NCBI GenBank assembly: GCA_964369155.1
Contig: CAYJEI010000001.1
Location: 607-64,606 of the forward strand
DNA length: 64,000 bases
Direction of reading: 5' to 3'
From: an uncultured Muribaculaceae bacterium
Lineage (GTDB): Bacteria > Bacillota_I > Bacilli_A > RF39 > UBA660
Shown: one piece after another, positions 5,023 to 48,166 of the stretch
Position numbering within the stretch: position 1 is the stretch's first letter
Layout of the letters: each line of letters begins with the position of its first letter
Translations under genes and position numbers: made by a program
Notes under the pieces: model-generated
The model's input: only the letters and a program-made list of their open reading frames with translations
The model's database searches: none
What the model was told of the DNA's origin: nothing

Positions 5023-5051
5023 TTGAAAAAAGAAAATAACTATGTTAAAAT
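5023..5051 (+). promoter_or_regulatory. Duplicated promoter/leader of paralog 2
   Basis: Identical to 2313-2341 region. Confidence 0.45.
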
Positions 5052-5075
5052 AAAATTAAGATAGAGAGGTTAATT

Positions 5076-6692: not shown

Positions 6693-6737
6693 GATTTTAG
6701 CAACACGAAAACCTCATTTCTGATAGGTCAAACGCGC

Positions 6738-8224: not shown

Positions 8225-8480
8225 GGGTATGTTGTTGAAGTGATGAGGAAACAAACAAAATCCATGGCCTATGTGTCTAAAAATGGGATAAGAGAAGAAA
8301 TAGAGTGTTAGTAGTTACAGTGCGAAAAGTAAGTTGTTTTTTTTCTCCCCTCTAGGAGATATTATGCAAAAATTTAGGCTACTTGAAAAAACAAGAAAAC
8401 AATTTTTTACGTTAATAAATATGTTGTTCCGAATATACCTAAAATTTATTCTGTTTATAGAAATGAGTTAATAAAATCGA
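8225..8480. repeat. About 250-bp noncoding repeat, copy A (about 88% identical to 31010-31265)
   Basis: Direct alignment; substitutions and non-triplet indels evenly spread, no conserved reading frame. Confidence 0.8.
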
Positions 8481-8847
8481 TGTTTATACTGCATAGAAGT
8501 ATTATAAGTGCAAATATTAACGAGGGAAATAGTAAAACTAGATTTCAAAAAGAGGCTTTAACTGAAATCTGTAATATAGATTTTATTATTTAATATTAAA
8601 TGAAATCAAAGTTATTGAAAGCAAAAGATATAACGCTATGATGAATGCTTTTTTAGAAATTAAAAAGATGCTAGAAACTTGGAGTAGTAATGAAAAGAAA
8701 AAATTATCTATTTAGTCATAATTTAAGAAGAGAAAGTATTTTTAACTGTTATTTAGATGTGAAAAGAAATTGTAAAAGTGATTTTAAACTTGCCAGTTTA
8801 GCGAAAATTTAAACTTAAATATTTTAAAAATATGTTTAAATTTACAT

Positions 8848-8878: not shown

Positions 8879-9040
8879 TATTTTTAATCAGAGAAAATAA
8901 AGTTATTATTAATTTATAATTAGTTTTATAAATATATTAGATACAAAAACATAACTAAATTTATTTTATTTAGTTAGTATATCTTAAGGTTATATTGTAA
9001 TATTTTAGCTTGTTTTGTCGAAGTGCTTGAAAGGAAAATT

Positions 9041-10043: not shown

Positions 10044-12164
10044 ATGAATTTAAATTTAATAAAAGAAGTAAGTTTAGAACTTAGTTTAAATGAAAAAGAT
10101 TGTGAAGCTGTTTTAAAACTTTTAGAAGAAGGTAATACAGTACCTTTTATAGCGAGATATAGAAAAGAAGCAACACATGGAATGGACGAAGAGCAAATTA
10201 GATTAATATCACTTAGATATGAATATATTGTTAATTTAGAAAAGAAAAAAGATGATGTAAAAAGATTGATTGATGAAAAGGGTCTTCTTACTGATGATTT
10301 AGTAAATAATATTAATAAAGCTACTAAGCTTGTTGAACTTGATGATATTTATCGTCCGTTTAAAGAAAAGAAAAAAACAAAAGCTACTGATGCGATTAAT
10401 AATGGTTTAGAACCTCTCGCAAAAGGTATTATGGCTTTTCCAACTAGTGGTTCTTTAGAAGAGATGGCTAGTAAATATGTAAATGAAAATGTTAAAAGTG
10501 TTGATGATGCGATTACTGGAGCTAAATATATTATTGCTGAGTGGATTAGTGATAATGCTTTTTATAGAAAGTATATTAGAGATAATATTTTTAAATTTGG
10601 AAGTGTAGTTACTAAGAAGAAAAAAGATGCAGTAGATGAGTCTAAAACATATGAAATGTATTATGAATTTAGTGAGAAAATTAGTTATGCTAAAGCACAC
10701 AGAGTACTTGCATTTAATAGAGCTGAAAATGAAAAAATAATATCAGTTTCACTTGATTATGATAAAACTAGAATACTTGATTTTTTAGAGAAAAAAATTA
10801 TTAAGAATAGTGATAGTTTTACTGCTTTAGAAGTTAAAGACGCTATAGCTGATTCTTTTAAAAGACTTATTTATCCTTCTGTTGAAAGAGAAATAAGAAG
10901 TGAGCTTACTAGTATGGCAGAGGTGCAAGCTATTGAAAATTTTAGTGAAAATCTTAAAAATTTACTAATGCAGCCACCAATGAAAGAAAAAGTTATTTTA
11001 GCACTTGATCCAGCTTATAGAACAGGTTGTAAACTTGCTGTTCTTGATAAAAATGGTAAAGTTTTAGATATATCAGTAATATATCCACATGAACCTAAAA
11101 ATGACAAAGCAGGAAGTGCTAAAAAGGTTTTAGAACTTATAAATAAGTATGATGTTGATATTGTTGCAATAGGTAATGGAACTGCATCACGTGAGTCAGA
11201 AGAATTTATTGCCAAGCTTATTAATGATGGTAATTTAAAATCTCAGTATATTATTGTTAATGAAGCAGGAGCATCTGTATATTCAGCTAGTAAACTAGCT
11301 ATAAGCGAGTTTCCAGATTACTCTGTAGAGCAAAGAAGTGCAGTATCAATTGGTAGAAGACTTCAAGACCCACTTTCAGAACTTGTTAAAATTGATCCAG
11401 AATCAATAGGTGTTGGCTTATATCAACATGATGTTGCGAATAAATCATTAAAAGAGTCACTAGATTTTGTTGTATTATCATCAGTTAATAGTGTAGGAGT
11501 AGACGTAAATACAGCAAGTATAGCTTTATTTAAATACGTTTCAGGTATCACTAGTAAGATGGCTGAAAAATTAATTGCTTATAGAGAAAAATCTAAAAAA
11601 ATTTCATCAAGAATAGAGCTTAAAAAAATACTAAGTGATAAGGTATACCAGCAGGCTATTGGTTTTATGAGGATAAATGACGGAGATAATTTACTTGATG
11701 AGACTGCAATACATCCAGAAAGTTATGATATTGCTACTTTAATTTTAAAAGATAACAATCTAAGTATAAGTGATATAGGAACTGAAAAAGTATTGAAAAT
11801 CAATTTTGTAAATAAATATGATATAGATAACTATACATTTGATGATATAGTAGATTCATTTAAAAAACCAAAAAGAGATCCAAGAGATGAGTTTGATAAA
11901 CCAATTTTAAAATCTAGTATCTTAAAATTAGAAGATTTAAAACTTGGAGATGAATTACAGGGTACTGTAAGAAATGTTATAGATTTTGGAGCTTTTGTAG
12001 ATATTGGACTTAAAAATGATGGACTTGTTCATATATCTAAAATAACTAAAGAGTATATAAAACATCCATCAGAAGTTTTATCTATTGGTCAAATTATTAC
12101 TTGCCATGTTGAAAAAATTGATTTAAAAAAGAAAAAAGTATCACTTACAATGTTAGGAGAATAA
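10044..12164 (+). CDS. tex: Transcription accessory protein Tex (YqgF/HhH/S1 domains)
   Basis: 706 aa; N-terminal FIARYRKE motif, C-terminal S1 domain. Confidence 0.9.
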   Translation: MNLNLIKEVSLELSLNEKDCEAVLKLLEEGNTVPFIARYRKEATHGMDEEQIRLISLRYEYIVNLEKKKDDVKRLIDEKGLLTDDLVNNINKATKLVELDDIYRPFKEKKKTKATDAINNGLEPLAKGIMAFPTSGSLEEMASKYVNENVKSVDDAITGAKYIIAEWISDNAFYRKYIRDNIFKFGSVVTKKKKDAVDESKTYEMYYEFSEKISYAKAHRVLAFNRAENEKIISVSLDYDKTRILDFLEKKIIKNSDSFTALEVKDAIADSFKRLIYPSVEREIRSELTSMAEVQAIENFSENLKNLLMQPPMKEKVILALDPAYRTGCKLAVLDKNGKVLDISVIYPHEPKNDKAGSAKKVLELINKYDVDIVAIGNGTASRESEEFIAKLINDGNLKSQYIIVNEAGASVYSASKLAISEFPDYSVEQRSAVSIGRRLQDPLSELVKIDPESIGVGLYQHDVANKSLKESLDFVVLSSVNSVGVDVNTASIALFKYVSGITSKMAEKLIAYREKSKKISSRIELKKILSDKVYQQAIGFMRINDGDNLLDETAIHPESYDIATLILKDNNLSISDIGTEKVLKINFVNKYDIDNYTFDDIVDSFKKPKRDPRDEFDKPILKSSILKLEDLKLGDELQGTVRNVIDFGAFVDIGLKNDGLVHISKITKEYIKHPSEVLSIGQIITCHVEKIDLKKKKVSLTMLGE

Positions 12165-24412: not shown

Positions 24413-24931
24413 ATGAATTTATTCGCACCAGATATGTATCAGCAATCAGTATATAAAATTAATTACAATAAACTTAAAATTCAAGGTATAAAATGTCTGT
24501 TATTTGACCTTGATAATACACTTGTTTCATATAAAGAGCATGAGCCATCAAAAAAATTAAAAGAATTTATGGCTCTTTTATCAGAAGATTTTAAGGTAAT
24601 TATTATCTCCAATAATACTAAAGAAAGAGTTAGACCATTTAAAGAGGGATTAAATGTAGATGCAGCTCATTCTTCTAAAAAACCGCTTAAAACAAAATAT
24701 AAAAAAATTCTATCTTTATATAAATACAAAGCAAATGAAATAGCATGCATAGGTGATCAAATAATGACTGATATACTAGGAGCTAATCGTAATCAAATGC
24801 TATCAATTTTAGTTAATTCAGTAGGTAGTGAGGAACCAATAAATACAAAATTTAACAGATTTTGGGAACGTTTAGTGTTAAAATCACTAAATAAAAAAGG
24901 AATTTTATTTAAAGGTGAATACTATGAGTAA
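24413..24931 (+). CDS. yqeG: YqeG-family HAD phosphatase
   Basis: FDLDNTL motif, size 172 aa. Confidence 0.75.
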   Translation: MNLFAPDMYQQSVYKINYNKLKIQGIKCLLFDLDNTLVSYKEHEPSKKLKEFMALLSEDFKVIIISNNTKERVRPFKEGLNVDAAHSSKKPLKTKYKKILSLYKYKANEIACIGDQIMTDILGANRNQMLSILVNSVGSEEPINTKFNRFWERLVLKSLNKKGILFKGEYYE

Positions 24932-26639
24932 AATTGAGGTAATGAGTGATCATTTAGCAAATAAAATAGCTGCTGGAGAAGTAATAGAAAGAACTTTATC
25001 TGTAGTTAAAGAGCTCGTTGAAAATTCTCTAGATGCAAAAGCTCATACAATAAAGGTAAATTTACTTGATAGTGGACTAAAAAAAATCGAAGTTATTGAT
25101 GACGGTATAGGAATGGATGAAAAAGATGCACTATTATGTTTTGAAAGGCACGCAACTAGCAAGATAAAAAAAGATGAAGATTTATTTTTTATAGGTACAC
25201 TAGGTTTTAGAGGAGAAGCTCTTCCATCAATAGCGTCGGTATCAGAAGTAATACTTATTACTAGTCAAGGTAATGTAGGAACTAAAATTCATCTAAAAGG
25301 TGGTAAATTAATTTGTAAAGAGCAAAGTGATGCCAGAGTTGGAACAGCTATAACAGTATCTAACTTATTTTATAATACACCAGCAAGGCTTAAATTTTTA
25401 AAATCAGAGAGTAGTGAGCTGAGTAACACAACAATGCTTATTGAAAAGTTAGCATTATCACATCCAAATGTTTCTTTTACTCTTACAAATAATGAAAAAG
25501 TAATTATTAAAACAAGTGGAAGTAATAATTTACATAAAACAATACATGAAATATATGGAATGAATATATCAAGTAACATGTTATCAATACATATTTCAAA
25601 TGATGATTACATTGTATCTGGTTTTATATCAAAACCCAGCATTCAAAAAACAAATAGAAATGATATGACAACATTTGTTAATGAAAGATTAGTAAAAAAC
25701 ATTGATATAAATAGAGCAATAAACGAGGCATATTATACATATAAACCACATGACAGGTATCCAGTCGTTATTCTAAATATTGAAACTGACCCAACTCTTA
25801 TGGATGTAAATATCCATCCAACAAAACAGGATATTAAATTATCAAAAATGACAGATTTAACTGACATGATTTACAAAGGAATAAAAGATTTATTATATTC
25901 TAACATATTAGTGCCAACGGCAGAACTTAAAGAAGTAGCGCCAGAAGAAATTGTTGAGGAAAAGTATGAATCAAATATAATAATTACCCAAACAGCTCTA
26001 GATTTTAGTGTAGAAAGCAGTAACGAAGAGCATGTTGTTATAAATAAAGAACTTCAAAAGTTAATTTTATATCCAGTAGGGCTTGTACATGGAACATATA
26101 TTATTGCAGAAAATGAAAATGGTATGTATATAGTTGACCAACATGCCGCAGCAGAGCGAGTTAGATATGAGACATATATGGCAAATTTAAAAGAAAAAAA
26201 ATTTAATATAAAAGAAATGATGTTTCCTGTAACAATAGAATTTACTGCTAGTGATTATATGAAATTTCAAACTAAAGAAAAACATTTTATAGATTTAGGT
26301 TTTACATATGAGGAATTTGGTATTAATACAATATTAGTTAAGAGTCACCCAGATTATTTATTAGAAGGTTATGAAGAAGAATCAATAAGAAAAATAATTG
26401 ATTTGATTATAAATATAAATAAAGACTTTGACAGAGTCAAGTTTCAAGAAAAGGTTGCTATTACCCTTGCTTGTAAAATGAGCATAAAAGCAAACCATAA
26501 AAGCTCACACGCGGAAATGGAATTTTTTCTAAACGAGTTAGTTAAATGTGACAATCCATATAATTGTCCGCACGGAAGACCTGCTATTGTTACATATTCA
26601 GGATATGATTTAGAAAAAATGTTTAAAAGAGTAGTTTAA
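24927..26639 (+). CDS. mutL: DNA mismatch repair protein MutL
   Basis: LANKIAAGEVIER...ELVENSLDA GHKL ATPase motifs. Confidence 0.9.
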   Translation, partial: SKIEVMSDHLANKIAAGEVIERTLSVVKELVENSLDAKAHTIKVNLLDSGLKKIEVIDDGIGMDEKDALLCFERHATSKIKKDEDLFFIGTLGFRGEALPSIASVSEVILITSQGNVGTKIHLKGGKLICKEQSDARVGTAITVSNLFYNTPARLKFLKSESSELSNTTMLIEKLALSHPNVSFTLTNNEKVIIKTSGSNNLHKTIHEIYGMNISSNMLSIHISNDDYIVSGFISKPSIQKTNRNDMTTFVNERLVKNIDINRAINEAYYTYKPHDRYPVVILNIETDPTLMDVNIHPTKQDIKLSKMTDLTDMIYKGIKDLLYSNILVPTAELKEVAPEEIVEEKYESNIIITQTALDFSVESSNEEHVVINKELQKLILYPVGLVHGTYIIAENENGMYIVDQHAAAERVRYETYMANLKEKKFNIKEMMFPVTIEFTASDYMKFQTKEKHFIDLGFTYEEFGINTILVKSHPDYLLEGYEEESIRKIIDLIININKDFDRVKFQEKVAITLACKMSIKANHKSSHAEMEFFLNELVKCDNPYNCPHGRPAIVTYSGYDLEKMFKRVV

Positions 26640-28298: not shown

Positions 28299-28362
28299 GG
28301 AAAATATAGAAAAGTTTTAATCAATATGATATACTGAATTTATAAAAATAGGAGAGAGTAAG

Positions 28363-30534
28363 ATGGAGCAAATAAAAAAAGTTAAAAAAAGAGTAATAGT
28401 TATGATAGTAAGTGTACTTGTACTGACTATAAGCGTAGGATACGCATTTATAGCAGGAGGAGTAGGACCAGCTGCTAATACAGATGTGGATATAGCAAGT
28501 GGGTCTACAACTAAACTTACATTTACAGAAGGAACACCTATAGGTTTAGAGTTAAATCAAACAACGCTTGCTGAAGGTGGTAGTGATGTAAGAGGAACTA
28601 CTACATCAAGTGCAACACTTACACTTGGTACTAATGTGACAAGCGCAACAGAGTATTATCAAGTTTATTTAAATATAGAAGCAAATAATTTTATTTATAC
28701 AACATCAGCAAAAACACCAGAGATATTACTTTCAGTAACTGATCCTGAAGGAAATGCTAAAAGTATAGAAGGTCTTCCAGAAGTATCTGCTGGAGTATAT
28801 GACATAACAGATTATAAAGGTCTTATAAAAATAGTAGAAGATTACGAAATTACAGGAAGCACTACAACAGTGCATGACTGGGAAGCAACAATAACATTTG
28901 TAAATTTAGACTCAAATCAAGCAGCTAATAGTGAAAAATCATTAGATGCAACTCTTATATTACAACAACCGAAAATGATGATACCAGATATAGGAATAGT
29001 AACTCCGGAAGGATGCACAGACTGTGGTCCAGGTGAAACAGTAGTAACTCCATCTACAGGAGATGTAGGGGAAAATGGTTCTACATATGATATATATACA
29101 GTAGGCTATGTAACTAATACATCAGCAACTGGAGTAACATACTCTATAGATATAAAAATACCAGGAATGGATTACTCTAAGCAAACTTTAGAACTAGTAA
29201 ATACAGCAGAAGTAATGGAACTTTTATTTGATTATGAAGAGTATATAGATTTTAAAGGTTCAGGAGTAATATCTAGTGGAAATACTGATGCAAGTGCAGT
29301 AGCAACAGCAAACGATCTTCATACATCATCAATGAAAGAAAGTAACTTAACTATAAATAGTGTAAAAGTAACATGTGGATCAGATAAATGTACAGCAGTA
29401 ATAACTGAAACATTTAGTAACTTATCAGGGTTAACAGCACACTCTACAACAACAAATAGTGGAGCAGCAATTAATGCAATATATAATGGAATAATGTTTA
29501 ATGTAATGTTAAGTGAAAAAACTGACCCATGTATAAATCCAACATCATCAAAAGATTTAATACTATGTCACAATGGAGGGCAAGCAGTAATAGAGGCAAA
29601 AGCAGAGCCTGATTTTACACAAGTAGCTGATACAAATGAAGGAATGTTTGCAGCAGAAGATGAATATGGAACAAGTTACTATTATAGAGGTGCTGTAGAC
29701 AATAACTGGGTGTTATTTAATGGAATATACTGGAGAATAGTAAGTATAGCAGGAGATGGCTCATTAAAACTACTTTATAGTGGCACTACAGCGCCGACAA
29801 GTTCAACAGCAACTGTTATGACTGGAAGTGGAACAGAGATAGGTACTAGCGCGTTTAATACAAGTATTAATGATAATGCGTATGTAGGATACATGTATAC
29901 TTTAAATCAAAGACAAGGATTAGGAACATCAAGTACAATAAAAGGAACTTTAGAAACCTGGTATACAACTAATATGAATGGAGTTGACTCACAAATAGCA
30001 GATAATATATTTTGTTATGATAGGAGTTTAGCTACAGCTGGATTTCAAAATTATAATTATGGCTCAACAAATGGAATTTATACAGGAACTGGAATAGGAA
30101 CAAGTGGTACATTATACGGAGTGACTGCAAGAATAACAGCATCAAGTAGTTCTTTTGGCCCAGGGGGAACAGGACCAGACTTAATGTGTCCTAGCAAAGA
30201 AGATGCGTATACAGTAGATGATACAACAAACGGAAATGGAGCTCTTTCTAAAAAAGTAGGGTTACTCACTGCCGATGAGGCAGTAATGGCAGGCCTTGCG
30301 TCTGGCATAAACATCTTTAGTAACTATTTGTACACAAATAGTAGGTACTGGTTGGGATCTCCTTTTGGGTTCTATTCTAGTTCTCATGCTCGTGTGTGGT
30401 ATGTGTATTCTTCTGGTCGTTTGAGCAACGATTATGTCAATTATGTTTGTGGTGTCCGCCCTACAGTTTATCTTTCATCTAATATCGTGTTAAGCGGAAC
30501 AGGTGAGTGGAACGACGTTTACAAAATAAATTAG
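28363..30534 (+). CDS. Secreted mosaic protein, paralog 3 (long form, extra about 190-aa insert)
   Basis: Signal ending ISVGYAF; N-domain type B shared with paralog 4; C-terminal module and 3' flank shared with paralog 2. Confidence 0.8.
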   Translation: MEQIKKVKKRVIVMIVSVLVLTISVGYAFIAGGVGPAANTDVDIASGSTTKLTFTEGTPIGLELNQTTLAEGGSDVRGTTTSSATLTLGTNVTSATEYYQVYLNIEANNFIYTTSAKTPEILLSVTDPEGNAKSIEGLPEVSAGVYDITDYKGLIKIVEDYEITGSTTTVHDWEATITFVNLDSNQAANSEKSLDATLILQQPKMMIPDIGIVTPEGCTDCGPGETVVTPSTGDVGENGSTYDIYTVGYVTNTSATGVTYSIDIKIPGMDYSKQTLELVNTAEVMELLFDYEEYIDFKGSGVISSGNTDASAVATANDLHTSSMKESNLTINSVKVTCGSDKCTAVITETFSNLSGLTAHSTTTNSGAAINAIYNGIMFNVMLSEKTDPCINPTSSKDLILCHNGGQAVIEAKAEPDFTQVADTNEGMFAAEDEYGTSYYYRGAVDNNWVLFNGIYWRIVSIAGDGSLKLLYSGTTAPTSSTATVMTGSGTEIGTSAFNTSINDNAYVGYMYTLNQRQGLGTSSTIKGTLETWYTTNMNGVDSQIADNIFCYDRSLATAGFQNYNYGSTNGIYTGTGIGTSGTLYGVTARITASSSSFGPGGTGPDLMCPSKEDAYTVDDTTNGNGALSKKVGLLTADEAVMAGLASGINIFSNYLYTNSRYWLGSPFGFYSSSHARVWYVYSSGRLSNDYVNYVCGVRPTVYLSSNIVLSGTGEWNDVYKIN

Positions 30535-30558
30535 GATTTTACCAGCACGAAAAGCCCA

Positions 30559-30584
30559 TTTCTGATAGGTCAAACGAGGGAGTC
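30559..30584 (+). terminator. Terminator-like hairpin GGTCAAACGA-gggag-TCGTTTGACC downstream of paralog 3
   Basis: 10-bp stem; 5' arm also present after paralog 2 where the IS follows. Confidence 0.5.
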
Positions 30585-30766
30585 GTTTGACCGTAATTTA
30601 GTTGTGGGGAATATCAAAAAATAGAGAAAGTCTGATTTATATCCGCCGAAAGGCGGAAAATATTTGACACAAAATATACATATTGGATATTTTGTGTCTT
30701 TTTGTAATTACGCATTATTTGCTTATCGTAAATTTGGTATAATATAATTGTATACAAGTTATACTG

Positions 30767-30912
30767 GGTTTTGTTACTTAGGGATCTCCTTTGGGTTCAA
30801 TTTTAATAATATTAATATATGGAAAGTGAATTCTTTTGGTAATTTGAAGAACAATAATGTCACTAATACTAATGGAATGCGTCTTGCAGAGCTTCCTTTC
30901 ATAATTTTAAAA
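30767..30912 (+). pseudogene. Frameshifted AT-rich fragment homologous to the C-terminal about 45 codons of the secreted-protein family
   Basis: Translates (with one frameshift) to LYW / YLGISFGFNFNNINIWKVNSFGNLKNNNVTNTNGMRLAELPFIILK*, which aligns to YWLGSPFGF...VWYVYSSGRL..GVRPTVYLSSNIVL; preceded by TTGCTT...TGgTATAAT promoter-like sequence. Confidence 0.55.
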
Positions 30913-31009
30913 TAAATCCATAAAATGATGTAAACTTTATAATAAACGAAGAATAAATTGTGATCATAGTAGTTTAAGATGTATAAATATATCTATAGTT
31001 ATGATATAT

Positions 31010-31265
31010 AATAAAGTGATGAGAAAACAAACAAAATTCATGGTCTATGTGCCTAGAATTAGGATAAGAGAAGAAATAGTGTATTAGTAGTACAGTGTGA
31101 AAAGTAAGTTGTTTTTATTCTCCACTACAGGAGATATTATGCAAAAATTTAGGTTACTCGAAAAAACTAGGAAAACAATTTCTAGTTAATAAATATGTTG
31201 CTTTGAATATATCTAAAATTTATTCAGTATATAGAAACGAATTAATTAAATCGATGTTTATTTTG
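31010..31265. repeat. About 250-bp noncoding repeat, copy B
   Basis: About 88% identical to 8225-8480. Confidence 0.8.
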
Positions 31266-31399: not shown

Positions 31400-31570
31400 A
31401 TTCTAGTGCGGAGGATATAGAAAGTAATTAGCGCAGGGATTAAGGTATCTTAATTGACGAGGTGTATAGTTATCGATTTATCAGCGGATGCTATACCGGC
31501 CAAAAGTGGTCGTTAAATATATGACAAAAAATAAAATTTAAGATTATAACAAAGCATATATTAAGAAAGG
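31400..31570 (+). ncRNA. glmS ribozyme: glmS ribozyme (GlcN6P-responsive self-cleaving riboswitch)
   Basis: A|GCGCAGGG cleavage-site core (A31430/G31431), P1 AUUAAG..CUUAAU, GACGAGG, P2 GUGUAUAG-UUAUCGAUUUAUCAGCGGAUGC-UAUAC matching the B. subtilis glmS leader; immediately 5' of glmS. Confidence 0.85.
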
Positions 31571-31583
31571 AAATAATTTTTAT

Positions 31584-33481: not shown

Positions 33482-35590
33482 ATGGATGAAGATATATTTA
33501 AAGAATTAGATGAAGATAAAAATGATATAAAAGAAGTTATAGAACTAGAAAGCGAAGAAATTGCTGTTGAAGATGATGTAGTAATGGAAAAAAATAGAAA
33601 AGGTAGAAAAGGTAAAAAAGAAAAAAAACCATCATGGTTTAGTAAATTGCCTAAAAAGAAAAAGATAATAATTATAAGTATAATTGTAGTTGTTTTGCTA
33701 ATTATTATTGGTTTACTATTATATTTCTTTGTTTTTAGTAAAAGTGAAACAAAAGATAAAATAGAAGAAGTAAATATAGTAGTTGAAAAAAATAACTATA
33801 GATATGAAAATGGTGTTTTAGTATTTTTAGATTCAAATGATAAAGAAATTGGGAAATATGAATGTACAAATAAAGATCAAAATTTATGTTTAATAGCGTC
33901 TTATAGTATTGAAGAAAATCTATACACTTCTAAATATATAAATGAAGAAGGTGAAGAAATTAATTTTGATACACCTGTATTTTCTAATAGATATGTAATT
34001 GTTTATGATAATGAAAATTTGGATAACGAAAACCTTACATTATATGATCTAGAATTAAACAAGTCTTTAGGTGTTTACCAAAGTGTTAAAAGATATGATG
34101 ATAAAAATATTTATTTAGTAGATGAAAATGGCAAATATGGATTAATTAATTTAGAAGGTGAAGAGCCGCTAACAAAAATAGCTTTTGAATATAATTATCT
34201 AGGAAATAATATCGGTAGTTCCAAAATAGCATATAAACTAGATGACAAAAGTGGTTTACTTAATATAGATGGTACAAAATTTAAAGAAAATTTAAGTGGA
34301 ACAATATATAGTTATGATGATAATGGACTTGTAGTTCTAGAAACAAATGGGTCATATAAAATTTCAGGATTAACTAATACAGATGTATTAAAAGACAGTT
34401 ATAGTTTTATGTATATTGAAGAAGGATATATTTATTATGTAGATAATAATATGTTATATGTGAGACTAGATAATGGATCTAAACTTTACGAAGAAGGAAT
34501 AGAAATTTTAGAAGGTACAGTATTTGACAATGTAATTACTTACGATGAAAGTTATAAATTAATTAAAAGTGAGTATTTTATTGAAGCTATTGTTGAAACT
34601 GGAAGTTTAGAATTTACAATGAATGATGAAGAATATAGTTATAATAAATATGAAGCTTTAATAAATAATAATTATAATTACGTAAATTATTTTGATAAGA
34701 AACTTTACATTTATAGTGATGCTGCTAAAGAAGAAGATTATAAAATATACACATGCGAAAATGAAAATACCGTTGATGAATCTGATGCAAGCTTTGATAA
34801 TTGCTTTATTGCAACAGAATCAAAACTTCTTAACAGAACAAATGCAAAAGATACATTAGGGTTTATACCAATATACGGAAACAAATATATATTCATTAAT
34901 GATATGAAACCTAAATCTACAAGCGCCAACATAAAATTATGGGATTTAGATAAACCTGATGCAGAATATCCAATTGCAACTTATAAAAGTGTAGATATTG
35001 GTTACTACAATGACAGTAATGATATAATATCTGCAGATGCATCTAATTTAATAATAATGGCTCAAAATTTAAATAAATATTATGGTTTAATTAAACTAAA
35101 TAATACGAGTGTTGAATCTTTATTCGGAACAGAATTTATTTACTCAACAATCCAGCTTGCTAATGATGTATATTATACTAAAGATAAAGATGGGAATTAT
35201 AGAATATTTAACAAAAGTGGTACAGAGATAACTAACTCAGAAATTGAAATTAAAAATGAAATAGTTGATTATAATGGAAATTATTTGAAGGTTAAATCGG
35301 GTACTGGAAAATATTTAGTTTATAAAAATGATGGAACAATTGTAAGTAATGAACTTGCTAATATTAAACTTGGAACAGATAAATATCTAGGAGTTACAAG
35401 CGATGATAAAATAGAAGTATATAATTACAGTAATGGAAAAACAAATATACTTAGCGTAACAGTGCCGCTTTTAAGTTCAGATATTACATTTGTAGACAAT
35501 ACAACAGCTGGTTTTGAAATAATTTTTAAAGACAGTGAGCAAAAAGTAATAGGAACATATTCATTTAAACATAATGGTGAAGAAGTATGA
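33482..35590 (+). CDS. Membrane-anchored WG/KYG-repeat protein with Cys pairs
   Basis: Acidic then K-rich N-term, one TM, repeated NGKYGLINLEG..IAFEYNYLG motifs. Confidence 0.6.
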   Translation: MDEDIFKELDEDKNDIKEVIELESEEIAVEDDVVMEKNRKGRKGKKEKKPSWFSKLPKKKKIIIISIIVVVLLIIIGLLLYFFVFSKSETKDKIEEVNIVVEKNNYRYENGVLVFLDSNDKEIGKYECTNKDQNLCLIASYSIEENLYTSKYINEEGEEINFDTPVFSNRYVIVYDNENLDNENLTLYDLELNKSLGVYQSVKRYDDKNIYLVDENGKYGLINLEGEEPLTKIAFEYNYLGNNIGSSKIAYKLDDKSGLLNIDGTKFKENLSGTIYSYDDNGLVVLETNGSYKISGLTNTDVLKDSYSFMYIEEGYIYYVDNNMLYVRLDNGSKLYEEGIEILEGTVFDNVITYDESYKLIKSEYFIEAIVETGSLEFTMNDEEYSYNKYEALINNNYNYVNYFDKKLYIYSDAAKEEDYKIYTCENENTVDESDASFDNCFIATESKLLNRTNAKDTLGFIPIYGNKYIFINDMKPKSTSANIKLWDLDKPDAEYPIATYKSVDIGYYNDSNDIISADASNLIIMAQNLNKYYGLIKLNNTSVESLFGTEFIYSTIQLANDVYYTKDKDGNYRIFNKSGTEITNSEIEIKNEIVDYNGNYLKVKSGTGKYLVYKNDGTIVSNELANIKLGTDKYLGVTSDDKIEVYNYSNGKTNILSVTVPLLSSDITFVDNTTAGFEIIFKDSEQKVIGTYSFKHNGEEV

Positions 35591-36480
35591 TAAAAAAAGA
35601 TGATAAAGTAGTTTTATATATAATTGTAATTTTACTTATTATCTTTTTGCCTTTAAGTGCATATGGAACATATTTAAAATTTTTTACTAGTGACATGATA
35701 GAAAATCCAAATGAAAATTTCAAACATGAAGGAAGTTTATACTTTTACGAAAATGATGACTTACTAGGAACATATAAATGTATTAATACTTCATGCGATT
35801 ATGCAAAAAGTGTAGAAGATGAAATTTTTATGACTTATGAATATGAAAACGTGATGGAAAATATAGATATTTTAAATAGCAAATATGCCCTTATAGAAGA
35901 TAGTACTTATGTATTACAAGACATGGTAAATGATATACCGTTAACTACATTTGAAAGTGTAAAATTTTATAACTCGAATATTGAAGGAAATAATATATTT
36001 GTTAAAAATAATGGTAAATATGGCATGCTATCACTAGAAAGCATAAAGTTAATAATTCCATATGAATATGATTATTTAGGTGTAAAAAATTATTATAATA
36101 ATGGATTACTGCAAATATCAAATATTTTAGCAAAAAAAGATAATGGTTTTTTCATATTGAATGACAAAAATGAAGTGATAAGTAGTATATTTAATGAAAA
36201 TGTAATAGATTATAATAGTAACTATATAGTAACAACAAATAATATTGTATATGACTATGAAGGTAATAAAAATTTTGAATTAGTATTAATAAAACAAGTT
36301 TTTTTACTTAATGATTACATAATTATAATGGATGATAATGATAATATATTTGTATACGATAATAATTTCAATGAATTAAAATCATTTAATAGTAGCGGAG
36401 GTAGTTTAAGTGCTATAGAGCATTTAGAAACTATTGAAATTTTCATTGATAATATATCAATAGATAATGTTGAAAAATAA
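35587..36480 (+). CDS. Membrane-anchored WG/KYG-repeat protein (paralog of upstream gene)
   Basis: YKCINTSCDY and NGKYGMLSLE..IIPYEYDYLG similar to upstream ORF; start overlaps stop. Confidence 0.6.
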   Translation: MIKKDDKVVLYIIVILLIIFLPLSAYGTYLKFFTSDMIENPNENFKHEGSLYFYENDDLLGTYKCINTSCDYAKSVEDEIFMTYEYENVMENIDILNSKYALIEDSTYVLQDMVNDIPLTTFESVKFYNSNIEGNNIFVKNNGKYGMLSLESIKLIIPYEYDYLGVKNYYNNGLLQISNILAKKDNGFFILNDKNEVISSIFNENVIDYNSNYIVTTNNIVYDYEGNKNFELVLIKQVFLLNDYIIIMDDNDNIFVYDNNFNELKSFNSSGGSLSAIEHLETIEIFIDNISIDNVEK

Positions 36481-36513: not shown

Positions 36514-36519
36514 ATAGTC

Positions 36520-36712
36520 AGCAAGCAAAGAAGTTTGAGGAGTAAAATATTATTTATTTTTAGAGAGTTAGTGTGAGGTGAAAACTAACAATAAATATAT
36601 TTGAAGGTTGCAAACGGAGTTTGAACGGTTAGAACCGATATATTCTAGATAAGTTAAAATTAAGGTGGTACCGCGTATAATACGCCCTTTGGTATTACCT
36701 TTTTATTTTGGG
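36520..36712 (+). promoter_or_regulatory. T-box riboswitch leader of valS
   Basis: AGAGA box, conserved T-box AATTAAGGTGGTACCGCG (36657-36675), overlapping terminator GGTGGTACC...GGTATTACC + T-run. Confidence 0.8.
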
Positions 36713-36720
36713 AGGATAAA

Positions 36721-39243
36721 ATGATAGAAACTAAATATAACCATAACATGGTTGAAAATGGAAAGTACGATAAATGGCTTTCAAGAAAATATTTTGAGGC
36801 AGATAAAAAAGATAAAGAACCATTTGCGATAGTGATTCCACCACCAAATGTAACAGGAAGATTACATTTAGGACATGCTTGGGATACAGCTATTCAAGAT
36901 ATTTTAATTCGTTATAAAAGAATGAAAGGTTTTGACGCAATGTGGCTTGCTGGTATGGATCATGCTGGTATTGCAACGCAAGCTAAAGTTGATGCAAAAT
37001 TAAAAGCGGAAGGAATAAATCCTCGTGATATGAATAGAGAAGATTGGCTAAATAAAGCTTGGCAGTGGAAAGAAGAATATTCAGGTAATATTCGCTCTCA
37101 GTGGGCTAAACTTGGATTATCTCTATGTTACTCTAAAGAAAAATTTACGCTTGATAAGGATTTAAATGAAGCTGTAAACGAAGTATTTGTAAAACTTTAT
37201 AATGAAGGTTTGATTTATAGAGGAGAGCGAATTATTAACTGGGATCCAGTTGCTATGACTGCTTTATCAAACGAAGAAGTAATATATAAAGATATTAAAG
37301 GCGCATTTTATCATTTAAAATATATGATTGATGGAACTAATGAATTTTTAGAAGTAGCTACGACAAGACCAGAAACTTTATTTGGTGATACTGCTGTTGC
37401 GGTTAATCCAAAAGATGATAGATATAAAAATTTAATAGGTAAATACGTTATACTTCCTGTAAGTGGGAAAAAAATACCTGTTATAGGTGATTCTTATGCT
37501 GACCCAGAATTTGGTACTGGTGTTGTTAAAATAACTCCAGCGCATGACCCAAATGACTTTGAGGTAGGTAATAGACATAACCTAAAGAGAGTTGTTTGTA
37601 TTAATGCAAATGGAACAATGAATGAAAATGCTTTAGAATTTGCAGGTCTTGATAGATTTACAGCTAGGAAAAAATTAATTGAAAAACTAAAAGAAGTTGA
37701 TTTATTAATTAAAGTAGAAGAAATGACACATAGTGTTGGTCACTCAGAGAGAACTGATGCAGTAGTAGAGCCTTACTTATCTAAACAATGGTTTGTTAAA
37801 ATGAGACCGCTAGCAGATAAAGTTTTAGAAAATCAAAAAAATAAAGATTCTAAAGTAAATTTTGTTCCAGAAAGATATGAAAAAATAATGAATCACTGGA
37901 TGGAAATTACTTATGACTGGTGTATCTCAAGACAGTTATGGTGGGGTCACAGAATTCCAGCATGGTATAATGGACAGGAAGTATATGTTGGAACAAGTAA
38001 ACCTGAAGGTGATGGCTGGATTCAAGATAATGATGTATTAGATACATGGTTTTCAAGTGCACTTTGGCCATTTTCAACACTAGGGTGGCTTGAAAATAAA
38101 GAAGACTATCAAAGATATTATCCAAATGATGTTTTAGTAACTGGTTATGATATTATTCCATTTTGGGTTAATAGAATGACATTTCAGGGACTTCATTTTA
38201 CTAATACTAGACCTTTTAAAGATTGTATTATTCACGGATTAATACGCGATAAAGAAGGTAGAAAAATGAGTAAAAGTTTAGGTAATGGTGTTGATCCAAT
38301 GGATGTTATAGAAGAGTATGGGGCAGATGCACTTAGGTTTTTCTTAACAACATCATCTGCTCCTGGACTAGATCTTAGATATGATGAAGAAAAAGTGGCA
38401 TCTGCGTGGAATTTTTTCAATAAATTATGGAATGCATCTAGATATGTAATGATGAATACAGAAGATGTAAAAGAAATTAAGTTAGACAATCTTGATACTA
38501 AAGATAAATGGATACTATCAAAATTGTCAAAAACAATTAATGAAGTTACAAAATCAATTGAAAAGTATGAATTTAATAATGCTGGAACATTGCTTTATAA
38601 TTTTACATGGACATATTTTTGTGATAATTATATAGAAATGAGTAAATTTAGTTTAGAAAAAGAAAGTACTAAAAGTACACTTCTATATGTCTTAACAAAT
38701 ATAGTTAAAATGCTTCATCCTTTTGCACCATTTATTACCGAAGAAATATACGAAAATTTACCTGTTAAATTTCATGAATCAATTATGATAAGTGATTTTC
38801 CAGAATATAGTAAGCAACTAGAATTTTCTAAAGAAGAAAATATAATTGATGAAGAAATAGAATTTATAAAAAGTTTTAGAAATATAAAACTAGAAAATAA
38901 GATGACAAAAGATATCAAAATTTTAATTAATAAAGAAAATGATTATACGTTAATTAATAAATTATTAAAACTTGAAGATAACTTAGTTAATGAAAAACTT
39001 TCCATTAAATCTTTTGAAGTTTTTACTAAAAACTATGGAATGACTATTTTCTTTGAAAAAGAGGAAACAGAAGAAGATAAAGAATTAAAACAAAAACAAA
39101 TTGAAAGTTTGAAAAATTCAATAAAAAGAAGAGAAGGATTACTTGCTAATCAAAATTATGTAAGTAAAGCACCTGAAAATTTAGTTTTAAAAGAAAAAGA
39201 ATCACTAGAGAAAGAAAAAGAAGAACTTAAAAACTTACTTTAA
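36721..39243 (+). CDS. valS: Valine--tRNA ligase
   Basis: HLGH and KMSKS motifs, 840 aa with C-terminal coiled coil. Confidence 0.95.
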
Positions 39244-43127: not shown

Positions 43128-43859
43128 ATGATAGATGTAGTAGAGGGTTTTATAGTAAGTGAAACAAGTTATGGCGAAACATCTAAAGTTATAAATGTTT
43201 TTACAAAAAAATATGGACTTATAGGTATGATGGCAAAAGGTGCAAAGCAAATAAAAAGTACACTTAGAAGTGGAACACTTAAACTTACATATGCAAACTT
43301 TCATATTAAATATAGTGATAAAAAACTTTCAACTCTAACTTCAGTAGATATTATAAATCCTTTAAAAAACATAAAAAGTGATTTAGTTCTTATTAGTTAT
43401 CTATCATATATAACGGATCTTACTTATCAAGTTTTAAAAGAATCAAATAATTTAAAAATATATGATTATTTTATAGAAATTATCCATAAAATGGAAGAAG
43501 GATTAAGTTCTTCGATACTAACAAATATTTTAGAAATAAAATACTTAGATTTTCTAGGTGTTGGTATTAATTTAAATGAATGTGCAATGTGTGGCAATAA
43601 AGACAAAATAGTTACAGTAGACGCTTCTTATGGAGGTCTAATATGTAAAAATTGTTATTCAAATAGTAAAATAGTAGATATAAAAGTTATTAAGCTTTTA
43701 AGAATGTATTATTTAGTAGATATAAAAAGTATAACTAATATTAAAATAGATGAAAGTATAAAAGAAGAAATAAACATGTTTTTGAAAAATTATTATGACC
43801 AGTACACTGGTATGTATTTAAAAAGTAAAGAATTTTTAGAAAAAATATTAAAACAGTAA
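43128..43859 (+). CDS. recO: DNA repair protein RecO
   Basis: OB-fold N-term, CxxC...CxxC zinc motif. Confidence 0.85.
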   Translation: MIDVVEGFIVSETSYGETSKVINVFTKKYGLIGMMAKGAKQIKSTLRSGTLKLTYANFHIKYSDKKLSTLTSVDIINPLKNIKSDLVLISYLSYITDLTYQVLKESNNLKIYDYFIEIIHKMEEGLSSSILTNILEIKYLDFLGVGINLNECAMCGNKDKIVTVDASYGGLICKNCYSNSKIVDIKVIKLLRMYYLVDIKSITNIKIDESIKEEINMFLKNYYDQYTGMYLKSKEFLEKILKQ

Positions 43860-43885
43860 AAAAAAGTACTGTTTTTTTATTGAGA
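43850..43885 (+). terminator. Terminator-like hairpin after recO
   Basis: ACAGTA-a9-TACTGT + T7. Confidence 0.45.
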
Positions 43886-43932
43886 GTTATTAAATTTTAT
43901 GGTATTATTTTATTGTAGGAGATAAGAGTTTT

Positions 43933-46101
43933 ATGATAAAGAAAAATAAAGGGAAAATATTAATGGTTTTAGGAGTATTACTTGTTCTAACTTTTGGTAT
44001 AACATATGCATTTTTTGCAGGAGGAAGAGGTCCATCAGCAAGTAGTGATATAGAAACAGGAACAGGAATTACTACTAAATTATTATTTACAGAAGGTACA
44101 CCTATAAACTTAGAATTAAATGAAGATACTCTTTTAGTAGGTGGAAGTGATGTAAGTGGAACTACTACATCAAGCGCAACACTTACACTTGGAACAAATG
44201 TAACAAGTGCAACAGAGTATTATCAAGTTTATTTAAATGTAGAATCAAATAATTTTATTTATACAACAGCAACAAAAACACCAGAGATACTACTTTCAGT
44301 AACAGATCCTGAAGGAAATGCTAAAAGTATAGAAGGTCTTCCAGAAGTATCTGCTGGAGTATATGACATAACAGATTATAAAGGTCTTATAAAAATAGTA
44401 GAAGATTACGAAATCACAGGAAGCACTACAACCGTGCATGACTGGGAAGCAACAATAACATTTGTAAATTTAGATTCAAATCAATCTGCAAATGAAGGAA
44501 AAAATCTTGATGCAACTCTTATATTACAACAACCAAAAATGATGATACCAGATATAGGAATAGTAACTCCAGAAGGATGCACAGACTGTGGTCCAGGTGA
44601 AACAGTAGTAACTCCATCTACAGGAGATGTAGGGGAAAATGGTTCTACATATGATATATATACAGTAGGCTATGTAACTAATACATCAGCAACTGGAGTA
44701 ACATACTCTATAGATATAAAAATACCAGGAATGGATTACTCTAAGCAAACTTTAGAACTAGTAAATACAGCAGAAGTAATGGAACTTTTATTTGATTATG
44801 AAGAGTATATAGATTTTAAAGGTTCAGGAGTAATATCTAGTGGAAATACTGATGCAAGTGCAGTAGCAACAGCAAACGATCTTCATACATCATCAATGAA
44901 AGAAAGTAACTTAACTATAAATAGTGTAAAAGTAACATGTGGATCAGATAAATGTACAGCAGTAATAACTGAAACATTTAGTAACTTATCAGGGTTAACA
45001 GCACACTCTACAACAACAAATAGTGGAACCGCAATAAACGCCATATATAATGGAATAATGTTTAATGTAATGATAAGTGAAAAAACTGACCCATGTATAA
45101 ATCCAACAACATCAAAAGATTTAATTTTATGCCACAATGGGGGGCAAGAAGCAATAGAGGCAAAAGCCGAGCCTAATTTTACACGTGTTGCAGATACAAA
45201 CGAAGGAATGTTTGCAACAACAGATACATATGGAACAGCGTACTACTTCAGAGGAGCAGTAGATAATAATTGGTTATATTATAATGGAATATACTGGAGA
45301 ATAGTAAATATAGCAGGAGATGAATCGCTTAAACTACTTTATAGTGGTACTACGGCGCCGACAAGTTCAACAGCAACTGTTATGACTGGAAGTGGAACAC
45401 AGATAGGAGATAACACATTTAATACAACAACAACAGATAATGCATATGTAGGGTACATGTATACTTTAAATCAAAGGCAAGGACTAGGAACATCAAGTAC
45501 AATAAAAGGAACTTTAGAAAACTGGTATACAACATATATGAATGGAGTTGACTCACAAATAGTAGATAATATATTTTGTTATGATAGGAGTTTAGCTACA
45601 GCTGGATATCAAAGTTCTCATTTTGGTTCAGCAAATGGAAGTTATACAGGAACAGGACTAGGAACAAGTGCTACATTATATGGAACAGCAGCAAGAATAA
45701 CCGCATCAAGTAGTAGTAAGGCAGCAGGTGGAACAGGACCAGACTTAATGTGTCCTAGCAAAGAAGATGCATATACAGTAGATGATACAACAAATGGTAA
45801 TGGAGCTCTTTCTAAAAAAGTAGGGTTACTCACTGCCGATGAGGCAGTAATGGCAGGCCTTGCGTTTGAGGAAAACGCCAGTAGTAACTATTTGAACACA
45901 GATAGTTACTACTGGTTGGGCTCTCCTTTTGGGTACGCTTCTCCTTTTATTAGTGCTTATATGTGGTATGTGTATTCTTCTGGTATTCTGAACAACAATT
46001 ATGTCAATAATACTCTTGGTGTCCGCCCTGTAGTTTATCTTTCATCTAATAATAAAATAACTGGAACAGGAACTTGGGATGATTATTATGTAGTACAATA
46101 A
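43933..46101 (+). CDS. Secreted mosaic protein, paralog 4 (long form)
   Basis: Signal ending FGITYAF; 456-bp tract 44572-45027 identical to paralog 3; AT-rich variant C-terminal end (..GTGTWDDYYVVQ). Confidence 0.8.
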   Translation: MIKKNKGKILMVLGVLLVLTFGITYAFFAGGRGPSASSDIETGTGITTKLLFTEGTPINLELNEDTLLVGGSDVSGTTTSSATLTLGTNVTSATEYYQVYLNVESNNFIYTTATKTPEILLSVTDPEGNAKSIEGLPEVSAGVYDITDYKGLIKIVEDYEITGSTTTVHDWEATITFVNLDSNQSANEGKNLDATLILQQPKMMIPDIGIVTPEGCTDCGPGETVVTPSTGDVGENGSTYDIYTVGYVTNTSATGVTYSIDIKIPGMDYSKQTLELVNTAEVMELLFDYEEYIDFKGSGVISSGNTDASAVATANDLHTSSMKESNLTINSVKVTCGSDKCTAVITETFSNLSGLTAHSTTTNSGTAINAIYNGIMFNVMISEKTDPCINPTTSKDLILCHNGGQEAIEAKAEPNFTRVADTNEGMFATTDTYGTAYYFRGAVDNNWLYYNGIYWRIVNIAGDESLKLLYSGTTAPTSSTATVMTGSGTQIGDNTFNTTTTDNAYVGYMYTLNQRQGLGTSSTIKGTLENWYTTYMNGVDSQIVDNIFCYDRSLATAGYQSSHFGSANGSYTGTGLGTSATLYGTAARITASSSSKAAGGTGPDLMCPSKEDAYTVDDTTNGNGALSKKVGLLTADEAVMAGLAFEENASSNYLNTDSYYWLGSPFGYASPFISAYMWYVYSSGILNNNYVNNTLGVRPVVYLSSNNKITGTGTWDDYYVVQ

Positions 46102-46852: not shown

Positions 46853-48166
46853 ATGGCAAAAGAAAAAATTAAAATGGGTAAAAAAGAAAAGATATTTAAT
46901 GTTATAAGTTTTTTAATTATAGGAGTACTTGCTATTTACTATGGTGGACGTGCAGTATACTGGTTTATATATGAACTTAGTGAAGCTCAAAATAGAGATA
47001 ATACTGCTGCACATTATGTAATAAATGATAATGAAATAGTAGATGAAGGTGACGGATTATACAGAGCTAAAGATACTTATTATTTTGCTGGAAATCCTGA
47101 AAATAATTACGTGACATTAGGTGGTGCGACGTATCGCATACTTAGCATAAATGAAAACAACGAAATGAAATTAGTTCTTAATGATGTTGCAGCAAGTTTT
47201 ATGTGGGGAGAAGAAAATAGTTATTCATCTTCAAATGTAGATGTTTGGCTAGGAGATAGTGGTGTATACTATGATACATTAATAGAAGCAGAAAAATATT
47301 TATCAAAAACTAAATTTACTGAAGATGTTTTAAGTGATGGAAGTTTAGAAGTTGGAGACAAATTATTTGAAGAGTATGTTACAACACTTACGGTATCTGA
47401 TTATGAAACTGCAGGTGGAAGCGATAGCTTTTTAAATAATGAAAAATATTTCTGGTTAATTGGGAAATCAAATGAAAATAATTTATATGTAAACTCCAGT
47501 GGAGTAATAAGTGAATACACAACTAGCGAATCATATGGCGTTAAACCAGTTATAACTTTAAAAGGTGATGTTATAAGATTAAGAGGAGAAGGAACTTTAA
47601 GTAATCCTATATATATTGATACAAAAGATGATATGACATATATAAATTCTTATGTAACGTTAGGTACTGATACATACAAAGTTTTTGAAGAAAATGAAGA
47701 TATACTTAAACTTGTTAAAACAGATAGTATAGCTGGTGTTCTAAAACCATATGGAACACTTAATACTAATTTTGATTTAAGTGATGCAACTAGTTTAGCG
47801 TATTATTTAAATAATGATTACTTAAATAGTTTAAGTTATGCAACTAGTTTATCAGATTGTACGTTTAATACTGGTGTGATAAGTGAAGAAAAAGGATTTA
47901 ACTATTCAAATATTTTAGAAGAAACTATAGTGGCTAAAGTTGGAATTATGAATATTTTTGATTATAATAATAACGATATAGAAAATTATTTTTACTTAAC
48001 AAATACAGGTCTAGGAAGTGATACAGCTTATGTGAAAAGTGAAAATGGATTATTAAAAAAAGATTTAATAACTTCTGAAAAAGAAATAGTTCCAGTTATT
48101 TGTTTAAATAAAGATAAAATAATAGATGGTGTAGGAGCTAGTTATAGCCCATATACAGTAGAATAG
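46853..48166 (+). CDS. Membrane-anchored protein with two tandem copies of the family C-terminal module (YYFAGNPENNYV...YRIL; YFWLIGKS...GVKPVITL; YFYLTN...IVPVICL)
   Basis: N-terminal TM anchor; motif-level similarity to the paralog C-terminal domain. Confidence 0.65.
   Translation: MAKEKIKMGKKEKIFNVISFLIIGVLAIYYGGRAVYWFIYELSEAQNRDNTAAHYVINDNEIVDEGDGLYRAKDTYYFAGNPENNYVTLGGATYRILSINENNEMKLVLNDVAASFMWGEENSYSSSNVDVWLGDSGVYYDTLIEAEKYLSKTKFTEDVLSDGSLEVGDKLFEEYVTTLTVSDYETAGGSDSFLNNEKYFWLIGKSNENNLYVNSSGVISEYTTSESYGVKPVITLKGDVIRLRGEGTLSNPIYIDTKDDMTYINSYVTLGTDTYKVFEENEDILKLVKTDSIAGVLKPYGTLNTNFDLSDATSLAYYLNNDYLNSLSYATSLSDCTFNTGVISEEKGFNYSNILEETIVAKVGIMNIFDYNNNDIENYFYLTNTGLGSDTAYVKSENGLLKKDLITSEKEIVPVICLNKDKIIDGVGASYSPYTVE

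Follow-up and report, generated by a model that had tools for sequence, protein, structure and literature searches.

How do two genes that lie 15.6 kb apart on one contig come to share a long segment in which not a single base differs? This question is raised by a stretch of 64,000 nucleotides (hereafter called the "window", G+C content 27%) in a contig of 64,862 bp, CAYJEI010000001.1, that stems from a metagenome-assembled genome (MAG). The window contains four paralogous genes for predicted lectin-like proteins, two long forms that we call p3 and p4 and two short forms called x5 and x6 (Table 1). Positions 29008-29463, within p3, match positions 44572-45027, within p4, at 456 of 456 positions, and the bases directly before and after these positions no longer match. 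The base-for-base identity claimed in a first-pass annotation of this DNA therefore holds, with exact bounds. We consider ectopic, non-reciprocal gene conversion between p3 and p4 to be the best explanation of this identity, with a probability of roughly 70%.

The identity is far beyond chance. Over their whole length, the p3 and p4 proteins are 84% identical, and the codon-aligned DNA sequences are 88.0% identical, with 260 differences in 2163 nt. When these 260 differences were placed at random in 100,000 trials, the longest run of identity had a mean of 47 bp and a maximum of 135 bp. Calculated analytically, a run of 456 bp under uniform divergence has a probability of about 1e-23, and these run-length statistics contradict an evenly spread divergence, the pattern that the first-pass annotation had named as speaking against its reading. 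The next longest exact runs between the two genes measure 110 bp (28741-28850) and 67 bp. At the third codon positions, none of 152 differ within the tract, as compared to 18% elsewhere in the two genes (P ~5e-14).

How sharp is this island of identity? It had been described as a sharp block, flanked by coding sequence of 85-95% identity and by clearly diverged signal-peptide regions. The divergence of the latter is borne out, as the first 226 nt of the two genes, which encode the signal-anchor region, are only 68.6% identical. The description of the flanks is only partly correct: on the right side, positions 29561-30340 are 86.8% identical in a patchy manner, and the tract is embedded in a 960-bp zone of 96.4% identity. 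The sharpness could not be upheld: the left edge consists of one synonymous difference at position 29007 and forms no cliff, and the tract is the core of this wider zone. Differences are crowded into two patches that interrupt this zone, which is probably the trace of older or patchy conversion. In the patch at 28921-28945, the p4 variant is the form that is common among other family members, while the p3 variant is near the AANSEKA sequence of P0002, the closest relative. The homology between p3 and p4 ends at the start and stop codons, and the surrounding DNA aligns at the random level.

Where does the tract lie in the encoded protein? In the AlphaFold model of p3, a hydrophobic helix (residues 2-31) precedes a confidently modelled β-sandwich N-domain (residues 50-203), a poorly modelled region (residues 204-390), and a confidently modelled C-domain (residues 390-723). 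The tract corresponds to residues 216-367, within an insert of about 180 residues (roughly 28975-29505) between the N-domain and the C-domain. The tract, previously assigned to a "type-B N-domain", thus falls in this insert, outside the β-sandwich N-domain proper. The insert is present in the long forms only (P0001-P0004 in our alignment), and is missing from x5 and x6. It is also rare: when 1.84 billion cluster representatives were searched exhaustively with HMMER, only 12 clusters matched at E <= 1e-3, and 5 at the stricter threshold of E <= 1e-10. A metagenome scan for the insert returned one distant locus, with 44% identity.

The relationships among the family genes change along their length. 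P0002, which is encoded in another MAG, matches p3 at 60 of 60 residues in the region of amino acids 1-60, and matches p4 at 30 of 58. In the tract region, the p3 and p4 sequences coincide, and each departs from P0002 at about 6% of the residues (94% identity; 141 of 150 residues). In the regions of amino acids 421-450 and 541-600, P0002 is nearer to p4 than to p3. As judged from these alignments, no single tree would fit all of the gene segments. A Sawyer-type permutation test on the shared C-domain, with 348 polymorphic sites, revealed significant clustering of the concordant sites (P <= 0.005) in every one of the six paralog pairs. At its 3′ end, p3 is closer to x5 and x6 than to p4: the last 60 coding nucleotides of p3 match x5 and x6 at 56-57 positions, as compared to 39 for p4. 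This likeness continues past the stop codon, as the first 42 bp downstream of p3 (30535-30576) and of x6 (6693-6734) are 90% identical. It thus seems that a family gene was duplicated or exchanged together with a part of its 3′ flank.

Further downstream of p3, a non-coding element of 250 bp has a counterpart downstream of x6, where it lies beyond an insertion sequence (IS) element, and the first part of the 250-bp element is kept downstream of the family gene in locus L002, from another species. The element belongs to the 3′ flank that goes along with the family gene. A search of the element (31014-31261) against Rfam gave no match, and the idea that it is the relic of a T-box leader found no Rfam support. 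A second island of identity, 139 bp long, joins x5 and x6, covering the 59 bp upstream of the genes and the signal-peptide codons in a background of about 80% identity, and the same two genes share a 54-bp exact run at their 3′ ends (3910-3963). The family in the genome of the window is a set of mosaics; of the exchanges that can be seen in it, the p3/p4 tract is the longest and the most recent.

Since the paralog pairs are mosaic and the nearest relative of P0002 shifts along the gene, ectopic gene conversion best explains the identity of the tract. Selection on the protein is not the cause, because the synonymous sites are also identical and P0002 is only 94% identical in this region. Segmental duplication does not account for it either, because the p3/p4 homology stops at the gene boundaries and the neighbors are unrelated housekeeping genes. 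The recent non-reciprocal recombination postulated in the first-pass annotation is accordingly supported as the best explanation by the clean synonymous sites and the divergence of P0002.

We propose that the exchange would proceed as follows. A broken or gapped copy of one gene would invade its paralog by homologous recombination, presumably in a RecA-dependent manner. The DNA would then be copied, or the heteroduplex repaired, whereby the recipient takes on the donor sequence and the donor stays unchanged. One such event may have erased all of the differences between p3 and p4 over at least 456 bp. Recombination between diverged sequences is limited by mismatch repair, and both the tract and the identity stop as the mismatches turn dense, as would be expected if mismatch repair aborts the exchange at such sites. 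Earlier events or patchy heteroduplex repair may be reflected in the 960-bp zone and the two patches in it that escaped conversion, and other segments of p3 and p4 would have been exchanged with other paralogs, such as the 3′ end of p3 and its 42 downstream bases with x6. The direction from p4 to p3 is weakly favored, because elsewhere p3 follows P0002, and P0002 has a different sequence in the tract. We infer the mechanism, the recency, and the direction of the exchange, as well as any role in surface variation, from these patterns. The presence of recO and mutL in the window indicates that such pathways exist, and nothing more.

Could the identity have arisen without a conversion event? Several observations weigh against gene conversion. 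The contig belongs to a MAG, and a de Bruijn-graph assembler may remove isolated single-nucleotide polymorphisms as bubbles, in which case the true identity of the tract would perhaps be about 98-99%. There are no two long exact runs parted by a single polymorphism, which is compatible with such smoothing. Moreover, the changes of nearest relative with respect to P0002 are documented at the protein level only, and no tracts of at least 97% identity and at least 150 bp were found between paralogs in other MAGs, among 79 family loci. This last result is weakened by the tendency of short-read assemblies to break at such repeats, and a few paralog pairs in other MAGs do reach 88-92% identity. An assembly artefact, in which similar copies were collapsed to one consensus by bubble removal or through a shared node, would yield a false identity or a chimeric copy. 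The related MAGs that carry the family consist of SPAdes-style NODE contigs, many of them from co-assemblies, and many of their family genes are located at the ends of contigs, where assemblies broken by shared repeats would place them. The differences that survive near the tract are all clustered, with a spacing of less than about 45 bp, the pattern that bubble removal would leave. However, bubble removal erases only isolated differences that are flanked by at least k identical bases, and thus the true identity of the tract would still be at least about 98%; even at this value, the island remains real against flanks of 69-87%. Both copies also stand in a single contig, where each has unique flanks and an intact reading frame, and the assembler kept 35 differences in the 960-bp zone and therefore separated the copies there. 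The x5/x6 island is of the same kind on a smaller scale. Taken together, we regard an artefact as quite unlikely.

A different history is that of a recent whole-gene duplication, or of a long form made from a short form by conversion, after which the flanks were overwritten patchwise by other paralogs, while the insert remained unchanged since no other paralog carries it as a donor. The boundaries lend this idea some weight, as the segment 28946-29560, with 98.5% identity, nearly coincides with the insert (~28975-29505), which the short forms x5 and x6 do not have and which is so rare (12 clusters at E <= 1e-3 in the 1.84 billion representatives). The p4 variant of the patch at 28921-28945 is common among other family members. 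In the C-domain, the differences form patches that p3 or p4 have in common with x5 and x6. Nevertheless, this history requires many overwritings during a period with no substitution in 456 bp, where otherwise a single conversion is enough. The five differences at the right tract edge (29464-29478) fall within the insert, for which no short-form donor exists, and the lack of homology in the flanking DNA and the neighboring genes runs counter to a recent duplication. We therefore consider this history unlikely, and since it still needs gene conversion within the family, it would change the history rather than the mechanism. Finally, extreme purifying selection at the nucleotide level, on an RNA element, an overlapping gene, or a regulatory site, could in principle maintain identity without recombination, and we found nothing in its favor beyond the identity itself. 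The tract region is not ultra-conserved between lineages, as it differs at 6% of the residues in P0002 and at about 27% in P0004; this divergence led us to rule out such selection as the cause. No Rfam family matches the tract region at the gathering thresholds, and the complete lack of third-position changes (0/152) over such a length is not normal for the constraint exerted by an embedded element. Such selection is hardly credible as compared to gene conversion between p3 and p4.

Table 1. Positions of the family genes, the regions of identity, and the associated features in the window.
Feature	Position	Strand	Basis or remark
p3, long-form family gene, 723 aa	28363-30534	+	Open reading frame list; AlphaFold2 model; Pfam DUF6273 at aa 626-705
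p4, long-form family gene, 722 aa	43933-46101	+	Open reading frame list; Pfam
x5, short-form paralog without insert, 534 aa	2366-3970	+	C-domain 68-74% identical to the p3/p4 C-domains
x6, short-form paralog in tandem with x5, 538 aa	5076-6692	+	Open reading frame list and sequence comparison
Exact-identity tract, p3 copy	29008-29463	+	Codons 216-367, inside the insert domain; base-for-base match and run-length statistics
Exact-identity tract, p4 copy	44572-45027	+	Base-for-base match
Wider near-identical p3/p4 zone	28601-29560 (p4: 44165-45124)	+	960 bp, 96.4% identity, 35 differences
Dense difference patch	28921-28945	+	12 of 25 nt; AANSEKS (p3), SANEGKN (p4)
Right tract edge	29464-29478	+	5 differences in 15 nt
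p3 3′ end and 42 bp past the stop codon	30485-30576	+	Groups with x5/x6, not with p4; sequence comparison
Element downstream of p3, 250 bp	31014-31261	+	87% identical to 8238-8487 downstream of x6
Second identity island, x5/x6, 139 bp	2307-2445 = 5017-5155	+	59 bp upstream and signal-peptide codons; ~80% background
A-poor, NNY-coded hypervariable stretches of the lectin-like domain	30298-30520, 45823-46050, 3716-3940, 6471-6650	+	Composition
Degraded, frameshifted, Asn-codon-rich copy of the hypervariable 3′ region, ~170 bp	30745-30915	+	~210 bp past the p3 stop codon
p3 promoter-like site	28307-28335	+	With ribosome-binding site
p4 promoter-like site, extended -10	43880-43908	+	With ribosome-binding site
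recO, directly upstream of p4	43128-43859	+	Pfam RecO_N, RecO_C; RecFOR-pathway gene
mutL	24915-26639	+	Pfam MutL_C, DNA_mis_repair

Which known system does this exchange resemble? The closest analogue in how p3 and p4 would exchange sequence is the Helicobacter pylori babA/babB/babC genes, in which ectopic gene conversion occurs among expressed adhesin paralogs (PMC3960876; PMC4552749). In both cases, the paralogs are dispersed, full-length, and independently promoted genes for predicted surface ligand-binding proteins; segments are, or in p3 and p4 would be, copied between the loci by homologous recombination, which gives mosaic or chimeric genes with locally identical tracts; and conserved regions supply the homology that anchors the exchange. 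The proteins themselves are different. The H. pylori bab products are outer-membrane β-barrels of the Hop family, whereas p3 and p4 are DUF6273 proteins with an N-terminal signal anchor, from a Bacilli lineage and known from their sequences alone. In addition, a known binding domain is swapped among the bab genes, while the p3/p4 tract homogenises a lineage-specific insert.

The cassette systems of antigenic variation, namely Neisseria pilE/pilS, Borrelia vlsE, and Mycoplasma genitalium MgPa/MgPar, are built from one expression site and several promoterless, truncated silent donors. They resemble the exchange proposed for p3 and p4 in the non-reciprocal transfer of DNA between homologous surface-protein genes and the resulting mosaic alleles. 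Unlike in these systems, p3 and p4 are both complete transcription units, each with a promoter-like site, a ribosome-binding site, and a signal anchor. Upstream of each of them, the terminator of the preceding gene is followed by a promoter-like site with an extended -10 element, a ribosome-binding site, and the full open reading frame. The genes p3, p4, x5, and x6 are all complete open reading frames, and a tblastn search of the window revealed no silent cassette array, only one decayed remnant of 170 bp and one distant homolog. We therefore rejected cassette-type antigenic variation, given the four complete open reading frames and the lack of silent partial donors in the window. The first-pass annotation had proposed an actively converting multigene family, as in antigenic or surface variation systems. 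The converting family stands, on the evidence of the mosaic genes, the clustering in six of six pairs, and the 139-bp x5/x6 island, but the likeness to antigenic variation systems breaks down in view of the complete genes and the missing cassette array. The exchange may nonetheless serve surface variation.

Gene conversion can also act in the opposite sense, toward uniformity. In tufA/tufB and the ribosomal RNA (rRNA) operons, RecA-dependent conversion keeps dispersed paralogs identical, including their synonymous sites. The p3/p4 pair resembles these genes in that stretches of dispersed paralogs are homogenised together with the synonymous sites. However, the whole gene is kept uniform in tufA/tufB and the rRNA operons, while only one segment is homogenised between p3 and p4, and the rest is a patchwork with different partners.

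What kind of protein is diversified in this manner? The C-domain fold of the family is similar to that of a solved DUF6273 domain and to C-type lectins. In the Pfam search for PF19789 (DUF6273), with a cut-off of 23.5 bits, p3, p4, and x5 scored 25.0, 25.2, and 27.4 bits, respectively, and x6 scored 16.6 bits, below the cut-off. Searches of the PDB with the sequences of the C-domain and the N-domain gave no significant matches. On the basis of the model, the family consists of predicted secreted or membrane-anchored proteins with a C-type-lectin-like (DUF6273), putatively ligand-binding C-domain. DUF6273 occurs in the N-terminal domain of the Thomasclavelia ramosa immunoglobulin A (IgA) protease (PDB 9qa6; PMC12402451), and C-type-lectin-like ligand-binding domains are found in the phage "tentaclins" and Mtd-like proteins, which are targeted by diversity-generating retroelements (DGRs) (PMC10743442; bioRxiv 10.1101/2024.10.15.618418). 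Unlike the T. ramosa IgA protease, the p3/p4 family has no peptidase domain, and unlike for the tentaclins and the Mtd-like proteins, no reverse transcriptase or clean template repeat was found near p3 and p4. The family also differs from the known DUF6273 proteins in its C-domain of about 330 residues, with an extra N-terminal subdomain, and in its family-specific β-sandwich N-domain, to which the long forms add the rare insert. The possibility of a SipW-cognate (TasA/camelysin-type) signal peptide found no support, as neither 20 N-terminal regions searched at E <= 1 nor the Pfam search gave a match to the NCBIfam or Pfam models for this signal or for the TasA/M73 domain, and no other named N-domain model matched either; the resemblance of the ...TYA[FY]F... 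motif to a SipW/TasA-type signal is an impression only.

The insert also occurs in proteins with another C-domain and in two proteins (P0124 and P0126) with a classical type IV pilin-like N-terminus (GFTLIELL). This suggests that the insert may be an extracellular module common to pilin-like and lectin-like proteins. Two genes past p4, an open reading frame of 437 aa (46853-48166, + strand) has an N-terminal hydrophobic segment and no Pfam match. It bears a weak likeness to the family C-domain (tblastn E = 1e-4; nhmmer match at 47431-47607), and by this likeness is probably a distant family member.

The family is large and has no functional name. When species-representative genomes were scanned with a degenerate pattern, at least 544 relatives were confirmed; among the 79 loci fetched, the closest is 74% identical. 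A single MAG often holds 5-10 of the best 80 family loci. The MAGs that carry the family are labelled as uncultured Bacilli, Mollicutes, Tenericutes, or Erysipelotrichaceae, and some "Muribaculaceae" labels among them look like mislabels. At least some of these MAGs are derived from the gut, including Hadza, chicken, and rumen samples. In the public annotation, the members appear only as "hypothetical protein". Family genes are cut by contig ends in L001, L004, L014, L018, L027, L078, and other loci, and the family is likely to be under-assembled in public MAGs.

The process itself is textbook knowledge, and p3/p4 is a new example of it in an unnamed lectin-like family of uncultured low-GC Bacilli. 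Its meaning lies in the picture of a large, unnamed family of secreted lectin-like proteins, present in multiple copies in uncultured Bacilli/Mollicutes-like MAGs, that is shaped by the exchange of segments between paralogs. Mosaic exchange is typical of genes that are pressed by hosts, phages, or changing ligands, which makes it reasonable to look among the family members for the adhesins or receptors of these organisms. In practical terms, the result provides a lead for annotation and a warning that such genes are likely mis-assembled in MAGs.

Is gene conversion the only source of diversity in this family? Downstream of p3, a degraded copy of the hypervariable 3′ region remains (Table 1), and its composition led us to consider a template of DGR-type mutagenesis. 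The remnant contains 9 Asn codons (AAY) among about 30, as compared to the 7.5% expected from the intergenic composition (P = 2e-4, with the frame chosen post hoc). Aligned with each of the four genes, it shows mismatches at 49-67% of its A positions and at 27-30% of its non-A positions (Fisher p = 8e-6 to 0.04), and the A-to-T mismatches number 11-13, as compared to 2-4 for T-to-A. Within each of the four genes, A is scarcest in the 3′ hypervariable region (13-17%, as compared to 36-39% gene-wide), and NNY codons reach their highest share there (70-87%, as compared to 44-50%).

An orthologous remnant with the same adenine properties lies at 10455-10650 of locus L002, after the gene for P0005, the closest family gene, from another species. 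It is contained in a 530-bp conserved downstream flank, while the neighboring genes differ: lgt and a thioredoxin-reductase-like gene lie upstream in L002, and the genes around the remnants are glmS in the window and cysS, on the downstream side, in L002. Compared with each other, the two remnants exhibit no adenine bias. Outside of genes, the only copies of interest in an nhmmer scan were the remnant downstream of p3 and its ortholog in L002, and no clean copies resembling a template repeat were found beside family genes elsewhere, nor was a template repeat found in four viral loci. A regular-expression search for a DGR-type reverse transcriptase motif, which is a weak detector, gave no hit in the window, 80 related loci, or 4 distant viral loci. 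A working DGR pair of template and variable repeats was rejected, given the non-A mismatches of about 17-29%, the insertions and deletions, and the lack of the reverse transcriptase motif. Moreover, the A-richness of the intergenic DNA (41% A) accounts for part of the adenine bias, as it alone pushes a decaying A-poor copy toward adenine.

The remnant is thus a possible fossil, rather than a finding. The Asn-rich remnant, its retention in L002, the adenine-focused mismatches, and the A-depleted, NNY-coded gene regions allow the reading that DGR-type adenine mutagenesis acts, or once acted, on this family as its chromosomal target, and that gene conversion between paralogs is now a further source of its diversity; we consider this reading improbable. 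If it were true, with the remnant as a fossil or a trans-acting template repeat, then a lectin family of host-associated Bacilli would combine two mechanisms of diversification.

The genes around p3 encode a DUF5698/DUF2179 protein, an HD-domain protein, and GlmS, and those around p4 are era, recO, and the thymidine kinase gene. A glmS ribozyme (31419-31572) precedes glmS, and one transfer RNA (tRNA) gene is present at 56280-56353. In the x5/x6 cluster, a gene for a DDE transposase (394 aa, 6891-8075, - strand) follows x6, and a truncated copy with 78% identity (4120-4599, - strand) follows x5; the x5/x6 tandem duplication unit includes the IS element. Near this cluster, at 9023-9952 (+ strand), lies a transposase-like gene of the PD-(D/E)XK nuclease family, the product of which ends in a C-terminal (GHAE)n repeat. 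Elsewhere in the window, there is a YqfD sporulation gene, and a T-box leader (36519-36692) stands upstream of an 840-aa open reading frame (36721-39243), the N-terminus of which is class-I aminoacyl-tRNA-synthetase-like. The region 33482-36480 (+ strand) contains two overlapping open reading frames of 702 and 297 aa, with no significant Pfam match. The 702-aa product is acidic at its N-terminus, after which come a lysine-rich stretch and a hydrophobic segment.

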